From a virus (lineage: Duplodnaviria; Heunggongvirae; Uroviricota; Caudoviricetes): 24,279 nt of DNA. The notes beneath the pieces were generated by a model. It was not told the origin of the DNA and searched no databases. It was given only the letters and a program-made list of their open reading frames with translations. The DNA is taken from IMG/VR virus record IMGVR_UViG_3300045988_060429, one strand, 5' to 3'. The position numbers and the translations under genes were made by a program. Numbering within the stretch: the first letter of the stretch is position 1; each line of letters begins with the position of its first letter. Shown here one piece after another: positions 3,939 to 24,279 of this stretch.

Positions 3939-4012
3939 GAACTGGAAGCAATGAGTTATGCCTTCCGTGGCTGTACTGGTTTACAGCATGAAGTCATCGC
4001 AATGGCGTCCTG

Positions 4013-4101: not shown

Positions 4102-4178
4102 TGGCGTGGCATGCAGGATTCGAACCTGCGACCAACCGCTTAGAAGGCGGTTGCTCTGTCCAACTGAGCTAATGCCAC
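4102..4178 (-). tRNA. tRNA-Arg, anticodon UCU (argU-like)
   Basis: Reverse complement folds by hand into a cloverleaf: acceptor GTGGCAT / ATGCCAC, D-stem GCTC / GAGC, anticodon stem ACCGC / GCGGT with loop CTTCTAA (U33, anticodon TCT, A37), T-arm GCAGG-TTCGAAT-CCTGC, discriminator G and encoded CCA. Confidence 0.85.
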
Positions 4179-4500
4179 AACGCTGAGAGCACTTAGCCTG
4201 TTAAGGCGCCACACTTTGTCGCGGCTCCATAAATGCTCTCATCGTTGTACCCTCGTCTCTTCCGAGGAGTCACACCGAATCGCCGGGATGGTGAATCCCC
4301 GTGCGCGGAATAAAACCGCTCGACTTGCACATTCCGGCTACCTGGTTCGTTTGCCCGAGCAAGGGAGGGTGCCCCTTAAACGTATCCAGACCGCTATCGG
4401 CGCATGTGCCATACGCCGTACTGCTCAAAATAAAAGCTAACTCCACCTGTTCAATTTAACGACAAGCCAGTCAGGTTAGTAACCGGAATGAACTCTTTGG

Positions 4501-4515
4501 TTACCTGAAAGGTAA
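4501..4515. promoter_or_regulatory. dyad TTACC-TGAAA-GGTAA upstream of the portal operon
   Basis: Exact 15-mer, identical to the copy at 23269-23283. The shared block extends to TTACCTGAAAGGTAATA, and CATATGTGGTT follows in both places. Confidence 0.5.
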
Positions 4516-4605
4516 TAATTTGTGCGTTAAATGTCAACTACCTACGATAAATAAATCATATGTGGTTAAATTGGTAATAATTTAATTGCGTACGGAGTCA
4601 TTGAT

Positions 4606-8498: not shown

Positions 8499-8514
8499 CG
8501 CCTGTTATTAACCT

Positions 8515-8534
8515 GTGGGTCGTAACAGACCCAC
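8515..8534 (+). other. stem-loop after the capsid gene (mRNA-stabilising or processing hairpin)
   Basis: Stem GTGGGTC / GACCCAC with loop GTAACA. There is no U-tract, so it is not a canonical terminator. Confidence 0.4.
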
Positions 8535-19500: not shown

Positions 19501-19949
19501 GTATCCAGCAGGGCGATGCTGCATTCTATCTTGGTGCGCTTGGCACGATTGCGCTTGGCTCAATGGTCTATATGATGAAACAGAAGTTAAGCGGTCGCGA
19601 TATCGACTACAGCTGGAATAACCTTGTGAAAGAGGGGATCGACCGGGGCGGAATGCTTGGCTGGCTCTCTGAGCCGCTGAATACCGTTGAGAACATAAGC
19701 GGCGGTAGGTTTGGTCTTGGCGCGATGTTTGGTGCGCCTCCGGTATCAAGGTTTCAGAGTCGTAATGCTATTGGTGCTTTACTTGGTCCTACCTTTGATC
19801 TTGGCGGTGATGCCGCGACGGTTGCGAATGGTGTGCTTAACGGAGAATTTGACAGCCAGCAAACCCACGCGGTCCGTAAAATGCTACCTTTTCAGAACCT
19901 GTGGGCGATATCACCGTTACTAAATAAAGTTGAAGAGCAGATGAAATAG
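16560..19949 (+). CDS. internal virion/DNA-ejection protein (gp16-like), 1129 aa
   Basis: Gly/Ala-rich hydrophobic segment (GGAGTISSLAMGMIDPVNVAAMFIPVGAVARGG...), long helical charged regions, and last position in the core-protein block. Confidence 0.6.
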   Translation: MPIYEQDPKELLGEDIQQIAAPDDSNFYMETPSLLSAVNPFTSDQRVQRSRQAAFRIDNTLGSFIASAPFSQFDRVEGYNPFDNDAADIKGYEDFADSFINSGSHEETMAIKHRIDKQRTDREYLSEMGGAGTISSLAMGMIDPVNVAAMFIPVGAVARGGSIAETAGRFALANAAGGGVSEAALQATQEARSPMESVSNVVVDALVGGILGAGAQLLSGPSAREAVVNSVGNHLRGMDSPQSIGAAQVFNTTLDQEQLAGLGLVNKTLSVTPAGRLAQSPSLVSRQINQQLAENNYFFAKNDEGLATFTAVETKIKQYDAMLYKQMEATRDAYQQYSKSVSARGVKRMNFIDFNEAVGMAMRRGDQSDIPEVSQAAARIRPIFETTKARMQELGILPEDIDVVTAKSYLPRIYKFDKILSDRTEFRGRIANWIQGISAKSADKAGQRIERINSLLKTAEESAPRADALASEIAEAEKWSGKKILLMEELDKRNKLISQETDTQARLTRIEKELAETSSEKLQARMMKESSDLKTRLDDIAQAKSELPVYQRHMELLDNPRKYRSELRRLQKRANSTTRLNASRERALKQMEPLSREEAEDAADEIVNKIIGAPSGLVPADIIPERLVGRAGFTKSRTLLIPDERIEDFLESDVNYIMESYLRQVAPEIELTAQFGRKDMGEQIRQVSEEYTRLIKEAKTPKRRAVLEKQREADIRDITAMRDRLLGTYGAPQDPRGFFVRAGRVARNINFLRLLGGMTVSAATDLMRPMMQHGLRKSLGPMVSMLKNMDSVKIATRDLREMAVGLDYVLSTRTKAIADLTDPYSRRSAAERGLNWMTQKFGNWTLMNQWNSALKSWSGMIVQSRILDAARQVSAGGTLSKSEMRKMAQVGINEDVLRRIGEQFGKHGEDMDGLLTGHSHLWDDRFAREIFQSAVLKDVDSVIVTPGVGDTPLFFSKEGWKMITQFKTFIFAQHNRVLVSGIQQGDAAFYLGALGTIALGSMVYMMKQKLSGRDIDYSWNNLVKEGIDRGGMLGWLSEPLNTVENISGGRFGLGAMFGAPPVSRFQSRNAIGALLGPTFDLGGDAATVANGVLNGEFDSQQTHAVRKMLPFQNLWAISPLLNKVEEQMK

Positions 19950-20390
19950 CTATTCACAATTAGTGATGGCGTATGTATCAAATATATTGCCATCACTAAA
20001 TACATACCTATACTCAATCTCTCCGCCAAGGTGAATAAATGCTTTCATTTGCCTGTTGGAGCAAATGCTCGATTTTGAATAATTTCGCATTACACTCTTT
20101 AATTTATTTTCTAAGGTTACATCACCATTATAAACTTTTGATAAATAGCTGTTGTTGTAATTAAGATGCGCTACAACTAAAAGTTTGTTTAGTATTGCAT
20201 TTATTGAAACAATAGACATATTATCATTCAATTTTATGGGAAGTGACTTTCCTGCTTCTGATGCGATTTTGTTTGCATGTGCACACATATCCTCATTTAT
20301 TAAATTCTTAAAACATATGTCGTTTGCAAACGAAAAAATTGGTAGGATAAACAAAACGGTAGCTGTAATAGCGTGCATCGGCTTAATCAT
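19950..20390 (-). CDS. secreted/periplasmic protein of unknown function, AT-rich (146 aa)
   Basis: N-terminal signal-peptide-like sequence MIKPMHAITATVLFILPIFSFA with a probable cleavage after SFA. The gene is visibly lower in GC than its neighbours. Confidence 0.5.
   Translation of the reverse strand: MIKPMHAITATVLFILPIFSFANDICFKNLINEDMCAHANKIASEAGKSLPIKLNDNMSIVSINAILNKLLVVAHLNYNNSYLSKVYNGDVTLENKLKSVMRNYSKSSICSNRQMKAFIHLGGEIEYRYVFSDGNIFDTYAITNCE
19961..20007. repeat. interleaved inverted repeats at the end of the late operon
   Basis: TAGTGATGGC (19961-19970) pairs with GCCATCACTA (19989-19998). GTATGTAT (19971-19978) pairs with ATACATAC (20000-20007). Confidence 0.6.
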
Positions 20391-20402
20391 TAGGTGACCT
20401 TT

Positions 20403-20852
20403 ATGTTCAAGAAGATGATCAACAGATTAATCGGTGGTAAGGAGGTTAGCAATAAAATTCAACCTCTTATCTTTAAGGATAACTTTTCAGCTTTTGAGTA
20501 TGCGTGTAAGTATCTTGACACAAGCCTTTCAGCCAATAAACCAATGCCAGCCATCATCATACCTGGTCCCAGTGGGGAACAGCCAGTTTTGCTAGATTCT
20601 GGAAGACAAAGGGCAATGCTGAAGGTGTGCTCAGCTGATGGTGGATTTTTTGTTATTGCCGATTCATCTTACAGCAAAGGACCAAAGCTGAGGATTGGTG
20701 ATCTTGTTGCTTGGTTGCCTGTGAGTTATGCCGAAGAATTAACGGATAAAATAGAAGATCCTCGCTCCGCTATGGTTGGCTTTATATTGGGAACCATTCA
20801 TCCTGAACTAACATCTACTGGCTGGAAGGGTAAAGAAAGATTTCGCAAGTAG
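20403..20852 (+). CDS. hypothetical protein (about 149 aa)
   Basis: ATG at 20403, 6 nt after AGGTG (the track's 20394 start is GTG). Divergent from the secreted-protein gene, with start codons 12 bp apart. Ends 1 bp before palindrome copy 3. Confidence 0.5.
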   Translation: MFKKMINRLIGGKEVSNKIQPLIFKDNFSAFEYACKYLDTSLSANKPMPAIIIPGPSGEQPVLLDSGRQRAMLKVCSADGGFFVIADSSYSKGPKLRIGDLVAWLPVSYAEELTDKIEDPRSAMVGFILGTIHPELTSTGWKGKERFRK

Positions 20853-20853
20853 C

Positions 20854-20865
20854 GTGACATGTCAC
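20854..20865. repeat. perfect 12-bp palindrome GTGACATGTCAC, copy 3
   Basis: Exact string at 20854-20865, abutting the terminator stem at 20867. Confidence 0.9.
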
Positions 20866-20866
20866 A

Positions 20867-20890
20867 GGCCGCTTTCGCGGCCTTGTTTTT
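20867..20890 (+). terminator. rho-independent terminator at a convergent junction
   Basis: Stem GGCCGC / GCGGCC with loop TTTC, followed by TTGTTTTT. The stop of the minus-strand peptide gene overlaps the T-tract. Confidence 0.6.
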
Positions 20891-21050
20891 AACGAATGCC
20901 ACCGCCACCCGGGCGGGAATCCGCAGAACGCCCACCGCAGCGGGAGCCGTCAGCAGCAGTGTCGCTGTCGTGCTGACAACGACCGGCAAAGGCCTGAGTT
21001 GAAGCTACCAGAGACAACAAAACGAACAGTGCAGCAAATGCTTTTTTCAT
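20889..21050 (-). CDS. small secreted peptide (53-aa precursor)
   Basis: MKKAFAALFVLLSLVASTQAFA is a classic signal peptide with an AFA-G cleavage site. The predicted mature part is a 31-aa Gly/Arg-rich peptide with two Cys. There is no lipobox. Confidence 0.45.
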   Translation of the reverse strand: MKKAFAALFVLLSLVASTQAFAGRCQHDSDTAADGSRCGGRSADSRPGGGGIR

Positions 21051-21120
21051 TGTGAAATTTCCATCTATAAGCCACCTCAATGTGGCGTCAATGAGTGTAG
21101 CACTGACTTTTGTTTCGTCC

Positions 21121-21145
21121 ACAAAAAAGCCCGCGCTGCGGGCTT
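21121..21145 (-). terminator. rho-independent terminator after the 210-aa gene
   Basis: On the minus strand: stem AAGCCCGC / GCGGGCTT with loop AGC, followed by TTTTTTGT. Confidence 0.6.
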
Positions 21146-21148
21146 CTA

Positions 21149-21781
21149 TTAATGCAGTTTATCTTTGCTTATAACCAGTAGTCTGTGGGTATGCACATCT
21201 TTATCACTGCCCCAACAGAAATCAGCCCACTGGCTATAGAAATCATCCCATGATGTCATGAAGCTAAGAGGTCTATCTTCTTCAGAGCCATCTGAAACGT
21301 ATACATTATATCCTGGGGTGTTTATAGCCCAAGAAATCATTCTTTCCCAGAATCTTCTCCCATCGATTGTTTGTTGCTCATCAGATACAACGATCGCATA
21401 TTGCTCTAGGAAGAACTGAAAAAAAATCTGAGGCAAACCATGAACAGCACGGTCATGAATAACATTAGGCGTACGCCATACCATGATCTGCGTACATGTT
21501 CTTTTGGCTTCGACGATATCTTCCCGAAAGATTAACTTAACCGCATACACCGTTTCTGGAGTATCGCTGGTAGTAATCATTCTGTAATGATCGCCATTAC
21601 AAGATTTTACAAGGCGATAACCATAAGGTGTTGTGAATCCCGGAAGAACGAAATCAACCACACCTTTCGCTAAGTAGCTTTCGGTGTGACTAGTGTTCTT
21701 CTCAGACATGTTCAGTTTTCTATCGAAATCTGCTTCTGGGATAATGTATGGCATCGCTTTTCTTGTTGTATTTGTTCTCAT
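21149..21781 (-). CDS. hypothetical protein (210 aa)
   Basis: Strong SD (GGGAGGA) 5 nt before the ATG. Own candidate promoter upstream and terminator downstream. No family recognised. Confidence 0.6.
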   Translation of the reverse strand: MRTNTTRKAMPYIIPEADFDRKLNMSEKNTSHTESYLAKGVVDFVLPGFTTPYGYRLVKSCNGDHYRMITTSDTPETVYAVKLIFREDIVEAKRTCTQIMVWRTPNVIHDRAVHGLPQIFFQFFLEQYAIVVSDEQQTIDGRRFWERMISWAINTPGYNVYVSDGSEEDRPLSFMTSWDDFYSQWADFCWGSDKDVHTHRLLVISKDKLH

Positions 21782-21840
21782 TTCGTCCTCCCATGTTTGG
21801 CTACAGGACGCGTTTTGAAGGGAAGATTAAAAATGCTTTC

Positions 21841-21855
21841 TTACCCTTGAGGTAA
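21841..21855. promoter_or_regulatory. dyad TTACC-CTTGA-GGTAA in the leader of the 210-aa gene
   Basis: Exact half-sites. It lies immediately downstream of the candidate -10 element of that gene. Confidence 0.45.
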
Positions 21856-21883
21856 TAGTACGCTATTCACCCCCAGTCTGCAA
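21855..21883 (-). promoter_or_regulatory. candidate sigma70 promoter for the 210-aa gene
   Basis: On the minus strand: TTGCAG, 17-bp spacer, TACTAT, about 75 bp before the ATG. Hexamers are only moderate matches. Confidence 0.3.
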
Positions 21884-21927
21884 TCTGTACAGAATTATTT
21901 AAAGGCACATCCCTGTGCCGCCGCCCG

Positions 21928-22620
21928 TCAGAAGAACCCTGCCTTGTCGTTGATGTATTCCGCGTGGGTCTGGATATCACGCAGGCATTTACTCACACCG
22001 ACGATGTAGCAGAACATGGTGGTCACCTCCGCCGCCGCGCCCGATACGTCGTGCCCGTCTTCCTGTAACTGGTTCAGCAGATTCATCAGCAGTGAGTTCT
22101 CCGTCAGGCCGAGAACACCAGACGGCGAATGAATCAGGCTGCGGTAGCCGGGCTTCAGTGGGGCGCTGTAGGTTTTGTTCTCTATCTTCATCGCCTGCAT
22201 TACTGCTGACGCCGTGGCGTTGGCTACCTGGTCGGCAACCATCTTTATGCGTTCTTCCTGCGGGAGCGAGTTTTTAATGTAACTTCCGGTGCGGCGGATC
22301 TGAGGAAGAACCTCACCTGTAACCCATTCAAGAAATCTGAATGCTCTCGTTCCCTCAGTCATTGCCTCTTTGCAACGCAGAATAAGGATGTAGAGACCTG
22401 ATTCTGAAACGATGGATAGTTCTTGTATTCCACCAGGGGTCTGTATTGAATACAGCCCCTTTTTGTTCCAGCCTTTTTTATCAAGTTTTCTCGCTTGTGT
22501 AACATCAATATTCAAAGCATTGCACACATCTTTGGTGACAAACCAAGGTTCTCCGTCAATCATGAACATACGGATCTGGCAGGATGACTCAAAGGAAAAG
22601 ATGGAAGGTTTGGTATTCAT
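21928..22620 (-). CDS. Bro-N domain protein (antirepressor-like), about 230 aa
   Basis: FSFESSCQIRMFMIDGEPWFVTKDVCNALNI...SESGLYILILRCKEAMTEGTRAFRFLEWVTGEVLPQIRRTGSY is a clear Bro-N signature. Start moved to the ATG at 22620 (AAGGTG upstream); the track's 22665 start has no SD. Confidence 0.75.
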   Translation of the reverse strand: MNTKPSIFSFESSCQIRMFMIDGEPWFVTKDVCNALNIDVTQARKLDKKGWNKKGLYSIQTPGGIQELSIVSESGLYILILRCKEAMTEGTRAFRFLEWVTGEVLPQIRRTGSYIKNSLPQEERIKMVADQVANATASAVMQAMKIENKTYSAPLKPGYRSLIHSPSGVLGLTENSLLMNLLNQLQEDGHDVSGAAAEVTTMFCYIVGVSKCLRDIQTHAEYINDKAGFF

Positions 22621-22887
22621 GGCGATCACCTTTGTAGTTAGGTTAATCACCACCGCTGAGACCAATCAGATGGTGGTGAACTGTGCAGAGTTGGTCTTAC
22701 CGGCTACAAAGGAACCCGGCGCACCTTTCGGTGCCCCCACACAGCCCACCATAGAATAGGTGCGCTTTACACATAAAAAAACCGCTTATGCGGCATATGT
22801 GCCTCTGTAGTAATCCGGGAGACCAATCCCGGCACTGGATTTTGCCAGTGCCCGATTACTATGGCACAAGAGGAGTGCGATGTAAAT

Positions 22888-22902
22888 TTACCGCAAAGGT
22901 AA
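22888..22902. promoter_or_regulatory. dyad TTACC-GCAAA-GGTAA in the intergenic region between the small paralog gene and the Bro-N gene
   Basis: Exact half-sites, inside a stem-loop-rich non-coding stretch. Confidence 0.45.
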
Positions 22903-22933
22903 ATATAAGCACTCCATTTGGTAATTTCAAACC

Positions 22934-23191
22934 TTATCTGGTTTGTTTTCGTAATTGTTCGGCACAATAGTCGAGATGTGTTTGCAGATCCTGCATAGAC
23001 ATCTGTGAGCTGGTGACGTAGTTAATCAGTGCAGTCAGTTCGGCAAGTGGGCCATCGACATTAAATCCATCCTTATCGAGATCCCGGAGTAATTTCATCA
23101 AGTGCGATCCCTCCACCAGTGACCTGACGCCTCCCGGCGTGTGAATCCTTTCGGTAAATCCCTCTTCCAGTGGATAGTGATACTGCTGCAT
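22934..23191 (-). CDS. small protein paralogous to the C-terminal domain of the Bro-N protein; candidate SOS-controlled antirepressor
   Basis: By-eye alignment with the Bro-N C-terminus gives roughly 35-40% identity (shared P-GV, L-E-S-LM-LL, DG--V-G, QTH--Y). Start ATG at 23191 sits 9 nt after GGAG. A LexA box lies 22-37 nt upstream. Confidence 0.6.
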   Translation of the reverse strand: MQQYHYPLEEGFTERIHTPGGVRSLVEGSHLMKLLRDLDKDGFNVDGPLAELTALINYVTSSQMSMQDLQTHLDYCAEQLRKQTR

Positions 23192-23211
23192 CTTAATCTT
23201 CTCCATGCAAT

Positions 23212-23231
23212 AACTGTATATTTATACAGTA
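23212..23231. promoter_or_regulatory. LexA (SOS) box AACTGTATATTTATACAGTA
   Basis: Core CTGT-ATATTTAT-ACAG at 23214-23229 fits the E. coli consensus CTGT-N8-ACAG with an AT-rich centre. Confidence 0.65.
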
Positions 23232-23268
23232 GCAAATAATTTGTTTGCTATCCAGCACGTTTTGCAAA

Positions 23269-23283
23269 TTACCTGAAAGGTAA
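23269..23283. promoter_or_regulatory. dyad TTACC-TGAAA-GGTAA in the divergent region between the small paralog gene and the tailspike
   Basis: Identical 17-mer to the copy at 4501-4517, followed by CATATGTGGTT at 23313-23323 (compare 4557-4567). Confidence 0.5.
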
Positions 23284-23387
23284 TATCTATTCGTATTCAC
23301 AGTCTTTTTATCCATATGTGGTTTTTCAGGTAATAGAATAACCAGATATGCGGCGCAACGGGTGCTGCGACTATCTGGAGATTTAAC

Positions 23388-24279
23388 ATGACGGTCTCAA
23401 CCGAAGTTGACCACAACGAATACACCGGTAACGGCGCTACGACATCATTTCCGTATACCTTCCGTATTTTCAAAAAATCCGACCTGGTTGTTCAGGTGTC
23501 TGACCTGAACGGGAACGTAACAGAATTGGTTCTGGATACCGGTTATACGGTAACTGGGGCGGGCACTTATAGTGGCGGTTCAGTGGTTCTTCCGTCTCCG
23601 CTTGCTGCTGGCTGGCGAATTACGATAGATCGTGTGCTTGATGTGGTGCAGGAGACAGACCTTCGCAATCAGGGGAAATTTTTCCCCGAAGTGCATGAAG
23701 ATGCCTTTGACTACCTGACGATGCTGATCCAGCAATGTTTTGGGTGGTTCAGACGCGCATTGATGAAACCATCTTTGCTTGCAAAATATTACGATGCAAA
23801 GCAAAACAAAATTTCTAACCTTGCAGATCCATCACTTGAGCAGGATGCTGTAAATAATCGCTCAATGCGTAATTATGTCGATGCTGCAATCGCCGGGGTT
23901 GTTGGTGGTTTTGGTTGGTTTATTCAGTATGGTTCAGGCGCGGTATATAGAACGTTTCAGGATAAGATGCGGGATAACGTTAACGCTCTTGATTTTGTTC
24001 CGTTTGAGCAAAGATATGCTGCATTAAATTTTGAAGTTGATGCGTCTGAATGGTTAATTAATGCGATAAATTCTGGTGCAAGTGTCGTTAGAATACCTGC
24101 AGGTAAATGGATGATTTCTAAGAACATAGATGTGCCTCCTGGAGTGTCTTTAATTGGTGATGGCATTGATTATTGGGATACATATAGACCAGCGCCTGAA
24201 AGATTATTAAAAAGTTGGAGTAAAGGAACCCATCTTGTATTTACTGGTGATGGAGAAAAAAACAAATATTTTTTTAACA
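23388..24279 (+). CDS. tailspike/tail fibre, N-terminal part (runs off the window end)
   Basis: ATG 7 nt after GGAG, open with no stop to the window end (297 codons). The N-terminus MTVSTEVDHNEYTGNGATTSFPYTFRIFKKSDLVVQV resembles the conserved particle-binding N-terminus of epsilon15/phiV10-type tailspikes (memory). From about residue 190 the sequence turns AT-rich. Confidence 0.7.
   Translation, partial: MTVSTEVDHNEYTGNGATTSFPYTFRIFKKSDLVVQVSDLNGNVTELVLDTGYTVTGAGTYSGGSVVLPSPLAAGWRITIDRVLDVVQETDLRNQGKFFPEVHEDAFDYLTMLIQQCFGWFRRALMKPSLLAKYYDAKQNKISNLADPSLEQDAVNNRSMRNYVDAAIAGVVGGFGWFIQYGSGAVYRTFQDKMRDNVNALDFVPFEQRYAALNFEVDASEWLINAINSGASVVRIPAGKWMISKNIDVPPGVSLIGDGIDYWDTYRPAPERLLKSWSKGTHLVFTGDGEKNKYFFN

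Follow-up and report, generated by a model that had tools for sequence, protein, structure and literature searches.

A LexA-box ant gene and an IsrK/C4-type Bro-N cassette as probable tandem antirepressor modules in a Uetakevirus-type phage of Escherichia coli

A LexA box in front of an SPC32H-type ant gene

The window analysed here is the whole 24,279-nucleotide stretch of IMG/VR record IMGVR_UViG_3300045988_060429, which represents a phiV10/epsilon15-like podophage or prophage of Escherichia coli, genus Uetakevirus. At the locus of interest two neighbouring minus-strand genes share a protein domain: a small gene, ant, whose product we call AntS, and a longer gene encoding a Bro-N protein with an Ant-like C-terminal domain, Bro-N::AntL. 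The 1.6 kb around ant are 92-98% identical to Escherichia phages EC.W1-9, TL-2011b, vB_EcoP_ZX5 (ZX5) and phiV10, and a prophage beside guaA in a complete E. coli genome matches window positions 19900-23400 (3.5 kb) at 99.0% identity and 80% coverage. The small gene, together with its LexA box, is found in 529 of 5426 complete E. coli genomes (about 1 in 10); it is labelled 'hypothetical protein' in RefSeq and belongs to a family, PHROG 450, that carries the label 'unknown function'. The features at this end of the locus are the following.

22934..23191, minus strand: ant (AntS), stand-alone antirepressor, 85 aa, orthologue of SPC32H Ant; Shine-Dalgarno GGAG at 23204-23201
23212..23231, minus strand: LexA (SOS) box AACTGTATATTTATACAGTA, read on the gene strand as TACTGTATAAATATACAGTT; 2 mismatches to the 20-mer consensus TACTGTATATATATACAGTA
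23269..23283, no strand assigned: operator-like palindrome TTACCTGAAAGGTAA, between the divergently oriented ant and tailspike genes, about 91 nt upstream from the start codon of ant

The LexA box is the sole site in the window within three mismatches of the consensus, and 100 shuffles of the window yielded none. Its CTGT-N8-ACAG core lies at 23214-23229, about 23-38 nt upstream of the ant ATG at 23191, and the gap between the full box and this ATG is 20 nt; a near-consensus SOS box 22-37 nt upstream of an 85-aa open reading frame (ORF), as an earlier note made from these letters had described it, is thus borne out. We then aligned nine Uetakevirus loci (the window, SPC32H, phiV10, epsilon15, Tyrion, BUCT554 and three Klebsiella phages), which come from four host genera. 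In 9/9 of them the gap from box to ATG is 19-21 nt, and the 40 nt upstream of the box diverge freely. The three Klebsiella phages carry a one-base variant, ATGT...ACAG, and the SPC32H counterpart, TACTGTATGTTTATACAGTG, stands at an equal distance from the ant ATG. SPC32N is reportedly distinguished from SPC32H by a point mutation in the LexA box that makes Ant constitutive. The box probably overlaps the -10 element of an ant promoter, for which a -10 (TATAAA, 23226-23221) and a -35 (TAGCAA, 23250-23245) were assigned by eye.

That the palindrome is a chance match, or serves the divergent tailspike gene only, might be argued from its place between two divergently oriented genes and from the promoter scan, which called no ant promoter. 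The shuffles speak against chance, however, and the distance to the ant ATG is constant in the nine loci though their tailspike genes differ, so that conservation effectively refutes this explanation and we give it practically no credence. Two further CTGT-N8-ACAG sites, at 3971-3986 and 8513-8528, make three in the window against 0.27 expected; their spacers are rich in G+C and each departs from the 20-mer at more than 3 positions, so they were treated as chance occurrences and are probably not LexA sites.

Read from its first ATG, the AntS ORF extends over 22934-23206 (90 aa). The ATG at 23191 (85 aa) is the likely biological start, because it is the one annotated in phiV10, has an equivalent in SPC32H (one codon earlier, 86 aa) and is preceded by a GGAG kept in 9/9 loci; the Klebsiella phages lack the upstream first ATG yet have the conserved GGAG. 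By tblastn AntS is 89% identical to SPC32H_020 'ant', annotated in both SPC32H and SPC32N as 'ant: anti-repressor protein', and phmmer aligns its residues 7-89 with residues 3-85 of PDB 5D50 chain E, 'Anti-repressor protein' (E=1.7e-47). The match to PHROG 450 reaches 1e-47. Pfam and PHROG scans of AntS returned its own family only. At the distal end of the gene, a plus-strand terminator-like hairpin with a T-run (22928-22945) overlaps the ant stop codon; the epsilon15 record assigns the equivalent hairpin to the convergent structural operon as its terminator, and in the window it looks like a relic, the cassette described below having been inserted beyond it.

The small gene occurs in 35 phage records (tblastn), all of Uetakevirus type: 34 are classified in the genus, and ST512-KPC3phi13.3 has no genus assigned. 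Every ant-bearing record also has a homologue of the repressor Rep, and across 50,697 phage records the Rep and Ant families coincide in their restricted distribution. In the 99%-related guaA prophage the Rep homologue is 43% identical to SPC32H Rep and matches 5D50_A at E=3.4e-42.

The LexA-ant unit is therefore effectively already known, with a mechanism published for an orthologue in the same genus. In the account of SPC32H given in PMC7380047 (after Kim & Ryu 2013), LexA self-cleavage allows the antirepressor to be made, and this inhibits the repressor through a protein-protein interaction; PMC9638917 and PMC9986798 describe tetrameric Ant as binding two Rep dimers, thereby breaking the DNA-binding Rep tetramer. 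A structure of the SPC32H Rep-Ant complex is deposited as PDB 5D50, and PDB 5D4Z belongs to the same system (Kim & Ryu 2013 J Virol; Kim et al. 2016 PNAS). The window phage resembles SPC32H in genus, in its ant gene, in the position and orientation of that gene divergent from the tailspike gene, in the distance of the LexA box and, as judged from relatives, in having a Rep homologue; it differs in its E. coli host, in the 43% identity of Rep and in the IsrK/C4/Bro-N::AntL cassette downstream of ant, which SPC32H lacks. By analogy, LexA would bind the box and AntS would bind Rep in the window phage as well. The proposal of the earlier note that the small gene is a LexA-controlled antirepressor of a prophage with an uncleaved repressor gains support from this 89% identical orthologue, and for the same reason is not new.

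SPC32H Ant is reportedly distinct in structure from Tum/Gfo-type small antirepressors. What the unit has in common with 186 Tum, Gifsy GfoA/GftA and N15 AntC (Lemire et al. 2011) is a LexA box before a gene for a small protein, located outside the immunity region, that binds and inactivates a non-cleavable repressor. In contrast, the Pfam and PHROG scans of AntS detected no sequence relationship to them, and the likeness is one of working in the same way rather than of membership.

IsrK- and C4-type RNAs upstream of Bro-N::AntL

Downstream of ant, a spacer of 310 bp separates it from Bro-N::AntL, and this spacer holds two full-length Rfam matches on the coding strand, one to isrK and one to C4 antisense RNA. 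The features of this part of the locus, in the direction of transcription, are listed here.

22888..22902, no strand assigned: operator-like palindrome TTACCGCAAAGGTAA, immediately adjacent to the isrK promoter's -35; centre at -44 from the isrK +1
22858..22886, minus strand: sigma-70 promoter-like site TTTACA-17-(TG)CATAGT (promoter scan); it ends 7 nt before the isrK 5' end, with which its predicted start coincides
22775..22851, minus strand: isrK-type small RNA (sRNA), candidate a1b1 decoy; Rfam RF01394, 74.7 bits against a gathering threshold of 50, full length 1-77
22826-22820, minus strand: a1, UUGGUCU, inside IsrK
22810-22802, minus strand: b1, CUACAGAGG, inside IsrK; pairs with b' through one G.U
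22794-22781, minus strand: isrK intrinsic terminator (terminator scan), the sole minus-strand terminator-like hairpin of the region
22669..22756, minus strand: C4-type antisense RNA; Rfam RF01695 (clan CL00128), 78.6 bits against a gathering threshold of 45, full length 1-87
22666..22752, minus strand: short upstream ORF (uORF), 28 aa, starting at a conserved AUG in the C4 5' end; positional equivalent of Gifsy-1 orf45
22712-22704, minus strand: C4 loop b', CCUUUGUAG, complementary to b2 and b1
22697-22691, minus strand: C4 a', AGACCAA, 7/7 match with a1 and with a2
22665-22659, minus strand: a2, UUGGUCU, just downstream of C4
22637-22629, minus strand: b2, CUACAAAGG, over the Bro-N Shine-Dalgarno; 9/9 Watson-Crick with b'
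21928..22620, minus strand: Bro-N::AntL antirepressor, 230 aa, from ATG 22620; Bro-N domain about 22303-22575, Ant-like (AntL) domain about 21937-22182
21841..21855, no strand assigned: third operator-like palindrome, reading TTACCCTTGAGGTAA, in the gap that separates the Bro-N stop codon from the following minus-strand gene (21149-21781)

The layout of the spacer, a1b1 followed by a'b' and a2b2, matches that of P1 immI, and a2 and a1 correspond to the two copies of a direct repeat, GAGACCAATC (22658-22667 and 22819-22828, respectively). A match to the c4-a1b1 model RF03163 also overlaps isrK, at 39.9 bits and thus below its gathering threshold of 46.7. Bro-N::AntL lies 49 nt downstream of C4, within C4's transcription unit. 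Across loci the uORF keeps its AUG and is 15-35 aa long, with a variable sequence and a stop 21-84 nt before the Bro-N ATG (45 nt in the window); Gifsy-1 orf45 is likewise variable in both length and sequence (PMC12197685). The isrK promoter sequence is kept in the window, ZX5, Tyrion, Kp4865-1 and ST512phi13.3, and in phiV10 the -35 hexamer has diverged. A stronger-looking promoter, TTGAAA-17-TATATT (22930-22902), was set aside because it is not conserved outside the E. coli phages.

The protein encoded by the longer gene joins a Bro-N domain (Pfam PF02498, 1.7e-13, 51.4 bits against a cutoff of 25.6, residues 17-107 of a 231-aa query) to a C-terminal region that matches PHROG 450 over residues 147-228 (4e-37) and PDB 5D50_E (E=2.4e-13); it also matches PHROG 130/1760 'anti-repressor' and is 99% identical to a 230-aa RefSeq protein. 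An AlphaFold2 model built from a 22-sequence alignment had a mean pLDDT of 52.8, too poor for a fold search, and the homology rests on sequence and profile matches. The window scan found no LexA box at the Bro-N gene, the one box being that of ant, and LexA control of this gene was accordingly rejected.

The two RNAs travel with the gene. We found isrK and C4 directly upstream of a Bro-N::Ant-like gene in phiV10, ZX5, Tyrion, Kp4865-1 and ST512-KPC3phi13.3, and both are absent where Bro-N::AntL is absent, in SPC32H, epsilon15, BUCT554 and BUCT711; the isrK/C4 RNA switch and the Bro-N gene are one co-inherited cassette. It is optional in phages of the E. coli, Enterobacter and Klebsiella Rep types, and none of the Salmonella-type records carries it. 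We rejected the idea that AntL is an adaptation to one Rep type, since the cassette is optional in three of the four. In phiV10 the gene is frameshifted into p23, annotated 'anti-immunity protein', which stops within the AntL domain, and a small ORF, p22, which encodes the remainder (locus L002, 4074-4753).

One close parallel is Gifsy-1 (Hershko-Shalev et al. 2016, PMC4825925). There IsrK has a promoter of its own and switches on translation of orf45-anrP from the read-through transcript, and the prophage is induced by the antirepressor-like AnrP. Both systems combine an isrK-family sRNA with a leaky terminator, a stable C4/STnc1160-like RNA overlapping a short variable uORF and an antirepressor-like gene. 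A small antirepressor under LexA control, GfoA, is encoded separately in Gifsy-1 (PMC3121763), so that a two-module logic is common to both, with unrelated proteins. Unlike Bro-N::AntL, AnrP evidently has no Ant-like domain (none was found in phage records outside the Uetakevirus group), and in the window, in contrast to Gifsy-1, b2 lies on the antirepressor's own Shine-Dalgarno, the uORF stops 45 nt upstream of the ATG and a Uetakevirus operator-like palindrome adjoins the promoter.

A second parallel is immI of P1 and P7, an operon reported to consist of the c4 antisense RNA, icd and ant (Citron & Schuster 1990); in P1 its promoter carries the repressor operator Op51. Here the resemblance lies in the C4 covariance-model match, the order of the a and b motifs, the control of an antirepressor and a repressor operator (in the window, an operator-like palindrome) at the operon promoter, whereas the phage type and the antirepressor are different, the window has no icd homologue and its a1b1 element is a terminated IsrK-type sRNA. 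In P1 and P7, c4 controls ant (PMC12197685).

Taken together, the Bro-N gene is a separate RNA-gated antirepressor cassette of the Gifsy-1 isrK-anrP or P1 c4-ant type, not a LexA-controlled partner of ant, because it has its own promoter, an isrK with a terminator and a C4 that pairs at the ribosome-binding site. The regulatory direction of the cassette RNAs would, by analogy with these two systems, be the same.

The palindrome at the cassette promoter belongs to a larger set. The motif TTACC-N5-GGTAA occurs six times in the window against 0.28 expected (motif scan: 1356-1370, 1374-1388, 4501-4515, 21841-21855, 22888-22902 and 23269-23283, no strand assigned), with copies where the small-terminase gene begins, ahead of both the portal block and the tailspike gene, and around the Bro-N cassette, a placement which suggests that the repressor may directly touch structural-gene promoters. 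The copy upstream of ant is found at -89/-91 in 8/9 loci, with one mismatch in phiV10, and the epsilon15 record lists the palindrome upstream of the ant orthologue as 'protein_bind: repressor, lysogeny', next to an IHF site. The centre of the isrK-promoter copy is at -44 in five loci and at -41 in phiV10, which makes all six cassette-bearing loci, and a downstream copy occurs solely in loci with extra genes after ant. In addition, clusters of the palindrome flank rep on both sides in SPC32H and in the E. coli relative, like OL/OR operators. Rep or a Cro-like partner would control the cassette promoter, by repression or by activation.

A regulatory module of about 80 bp (TTACCTGAAAGGTAATA ... 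CATATGTGGTT ... GGTAATA) was also seen twice on the plus strand, at window 4485-4600 and 23253-23345. It precedes the portal-region genes (with palindrome 4501) and the tailspike gene, includes the 23269-23283 palindrome and probably represents a shared late-promoter architecture. Because it forms part of a module that also precedes the portal block, the 23269-23283 palindrome probably serves the divergent tailspike promoter.

Window 19950-21781, which separates the genes for injection proteins from the Bro-N gene, contains three accessory ORFs, one of 152 aa on the plus strand and two of 146 aa and 210 aa on the minus strand. Their PHROG matches are solely to families of unknown function. In the closest genome a YafO-family toxin gene substitutes for the 210-aa gene, and the segment is on this account a variable moron slot. 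A tRNA-Arg gene (anticodon TCT, 4102-4178, minus strand) lies in the structural region between the terminase and portal genes and is annotated in the related guaA prophage too.

Origin of the shared Ant domain

BLASTP aligns AntS with residues 146-223 of the Bro-N protein over 78 positions with no gaps (32/78 identities, 41%, E=1e-16), and both proteins match PHROG 450 and 5D50_E. The formal pairwise comparison that the earlier note had asked for thus returns a significant similarity, and its observation that the small ORF aligns with the C-terminal 80 residues of the Bro-N protein stands. We then searched 1.84 billion proteins exhaustively with a profile, an earlier word-index search having reached close relatives only. 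The AntS/AntL domain family is small, because just 64 cluster representatives were recovered in this way. In its longer members the domain sits at the C-terminus behind Bro-N, AntA, Rha or ORF6N heads: the fused AntL domain also occurs alone and behind AntA, and related lineages stand behind Rha and ORF6N.

A distance matrix and neighbour-joining tree resolve two clades, with 57-95% identity within AntS, 61-99% within AntL and 32-42% between them, and a Rha-fused lineage besides. In E. coli, AntL copies at 95% identity or above are Bro-N-fused, AntA-fused and free-standing. One free copy (locus L010, 4001-4294) closes the early-left operon and adjoins int in a different guaA prophage of Uetakevirus type; more distant free copies (loci L006-L009, 4001-4288) have an AlpA-like gene and a HicA toxin as neighbours within a small islet in Klebsiella. 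The 84-aa protein P0144 is a natural chimera, AntS-like in its N-terminal half and AntL-like in its C-terminal half, which indicates recombination between the two antirepressor lineages. Neither clade was found in phage genome records outside the Uetakevirus type.

As far as the tree and the alignments can tell, AntS and AntL are an old paralogy with recent shuffling of the AntL module, and not the product of a local tandem duplication, which we rejected on the grounds that the two clades are old and the proteins only 32-42% identical. This bears on the proposal that a local duplication produced two genes which work as one LexA-controlled induction switch. The genes are indeed adjacent, on the same strand and homologous in one domain, and SOS-dependent read-through into the cassette could occur, with no intrinsic terminator from the ant stop to the IsrK terminator. 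Set against this, the window has a single LexA box, the Bro-N gene is preceded by a conserved promoter of its own and an sRNA terminator and has its ribosome-binding site covered by an antisense RNA, the two domains are just 36-41% identical while AntL is 95-99% identical to free-standing and AntA-fused copies in E. coli, and SPC32H, epsilon15, BUCT554 and BUCT711 have LexA-ant without a Bro-N gene. We consider a single switch of this kind very unlikely, and the claim of the earlier note that one SOS switch had been built from a duplicated domain is not supported: Bro-N lacks a LexA box, has its own promoter, isrK and C4, and carries a domain of a separate old lineage.

The arrangement had also been thought undescribed. 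This survives for the shared domain, for which we found no paper, and fails for the LexA-antirepressor core, already published for SPC32H. No published mention of the shared Ant fold turned up in the searchable literature, the primary SPC32H papers being beyond its reach. Within that literature, the homology of SPC32H-type Ant to the C-terminal domain of Bro-N/AntA 'antirepressors' appears to be unreported, as do the IsrK/C4 control of Bro-N::AntL in these phages and the operator at the cassette promoter.

Two antirepressor modules and how they may act

We think it probable that the locus consists of two tandem minus-strand antirepressor modules, an SPC32H-type SOS trigger and an IsrK/C4-gated Bro-N::AntL cassette. 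In the first, host LexA would occupy the box overlapping the ant promoter in the lysogen; DNA damage would bring about LexA cleavage and synthesis of the 85-aa Ant and, by homology to SPC32H, the Ant tetramer would bind the C-terminal domains of the non-cleavable Rep, break Rep tetramers and free the operators. The second would be an accessory cassette that was inserted immediately behind ant; a palindrome resembling a Rep operator adjoins its sigma-70 promoter, which is followed in order by an IsrK-type sRNA with a leaky terminator, C4 and Bro-N::AntL. Following the analogy of P1 c4-ant and Gifsy-1 isrK-orf45-anrP, C4 would hold Bro-N::AntL untranslated and IsrK would titrate C4, turning translation on. 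As a paralogue of Ant, AntL most likely binds Rep-family repressors too, and such binding would give a second non-SOS or reinforcing route to derepression, or anti-immunity on superinfection.

Experimental data on this protein come from ZX5 (PMC9782041). ORF4 of that phage, an 'anti-repressor', is its version of Bro-N::AntL, located identically and accompanied by the same ant gene and RNA cassette. It is 80% identical overall to the protein of the window, with one substitution from residue 105 to the C-terminus. Overexpression of ORF4 lowered lysogens from 1e9 to 1e6 (about 1000-fold) and the repressor transcript by 75% (Li et al. 2022, PMC9782041), a phenotype for which the shared Ant domain offers a rationale. 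The same paper has nothing on the RNA elements, the LexA box or the homology of the ORF4 C-terminus to SPC32H Ant, and the small ant gene passes unremarked there as hypothetical.

One alternative for the second module is that Bro-N::AntL serves mainly in anti-immunity or cross-talk: produced upon superinfection, or following induction, it would inactivate the Rep of other resident Uetakevirus-type prophages instead of its own Rep, in the manner of P22 Ant, P1 Ant and Fels-1 FsoA. Several observations fit it, namely the phiV10 annotation 'anti-immunity protein', the optional presence of the cassette in three of four Rep types together with its absence from the Salmonella type and its frameshift in phiV10, the divergence of AntL from AntS, and an operator-like palindrome at the cassette promoter that fits expression only without Rep. 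Antirepressors acting on non-cognate repressors do exist, and so does one under phage-repressor control, Fels-1 FsoA, which acts in trans (Lemire et al. 2011). However, overexpressed ZX5 ORF4 lowered ZX5's own lysogeny, and the protein therefore acts on its own phage's switch. We regard a mainly cross-talk role as possible while doubting it, and it would be compatible with the two-module explanation.

It is very improbable, in our judgement, that AntL co-assembles with tetrameric AntS instead of binding Rep, and thereby modulates or tethers this antirepressor of the SOS route, acting for instance as a buffer that Bro-N anchors to DNA. The AntL fold family is shared with a known tetramer-former, and the P0144 chimera shows that AntS and AntL halves are structurally compatible; the ZX5 overexpression phenotype, on the other hand, is toward lysis and not toward damped induction, and the stand-alone AntL genes of loci L006-L009 have no AntS nearby.

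Returning to the two-module reading, several results weigh against it. The consensus promoter scan gave no strong ant promoter, and rep lies outside the window and was seen solely in near-identical relatives. Between the phages of E. coli and Salmonella, AntS keeps 87% identity against just 43% for Rep (rep at L004 9929-10513 and L003 11740-12336), a mismatch that leaves a conserved Ant-Rep contact surface a conjecture; Ant either contacts Rep at a limited, conserved surface or is promiscuous with respect to immunity type. The whole-length RNAduplex energies (C4 with the Bro-N leader, C4 with IsrK) beat just 291/300 shuffles, 9/300 being as good, and because they do so only modestly, the RNA-pairing argument is carried by the specific 7-9-nt motifs. 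A palindrome centred at -44 fits activation of the isrK promoter as well as repression. The ZX5 ORF4 overexpression used a glutathione S-transferase (GST) fusion at a 500-1500-fold transcript excess and involved no binding assay (PMC9782041). Finally, phiV10 is viable and temperate despite its frameshifted Bro-N::AntL, and module 2 is therefore dispensable.

Beyond two modules side by side, the locus could also form a series, an SOS to sRNA to antirepressor feed-forward latch of two paralogous Rep-binding modules, an arrangement that we regard as rather unlikely. The terminator scan found no intrinsic terminator between the ant stop codon and the IsrK terminator, and LexA-derepressed ant transcripts would therefore carry the whole of IsrK (a1b1) as their 3' end. 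An SOS burst might then flood C4 with decoy, lift the C4 block on the Bro-N::AntL ribosome-binding site and release a second Rep-binding protein, and loss of Rep from the isrK-promoter palindrome would feed the loop further. If this were true, induction would be irreversible.

The finding is incremental and brings no new principle, its core being ordinary. Nevertheless, transferring the annotation from SPC32H would explain the induction of a very common family of serotype-converting E. coli, Salmonella and Klebsiella prophages by DNA-damaging antibiotics. Furthermore, a second, sRNA- and antisense-gated antirepressor that would reuse the Rep-binding fold behind interchangeable Bro-N, AntA, Rha or ORF6N heads offers a testable case of phage sensor/effector recombination.

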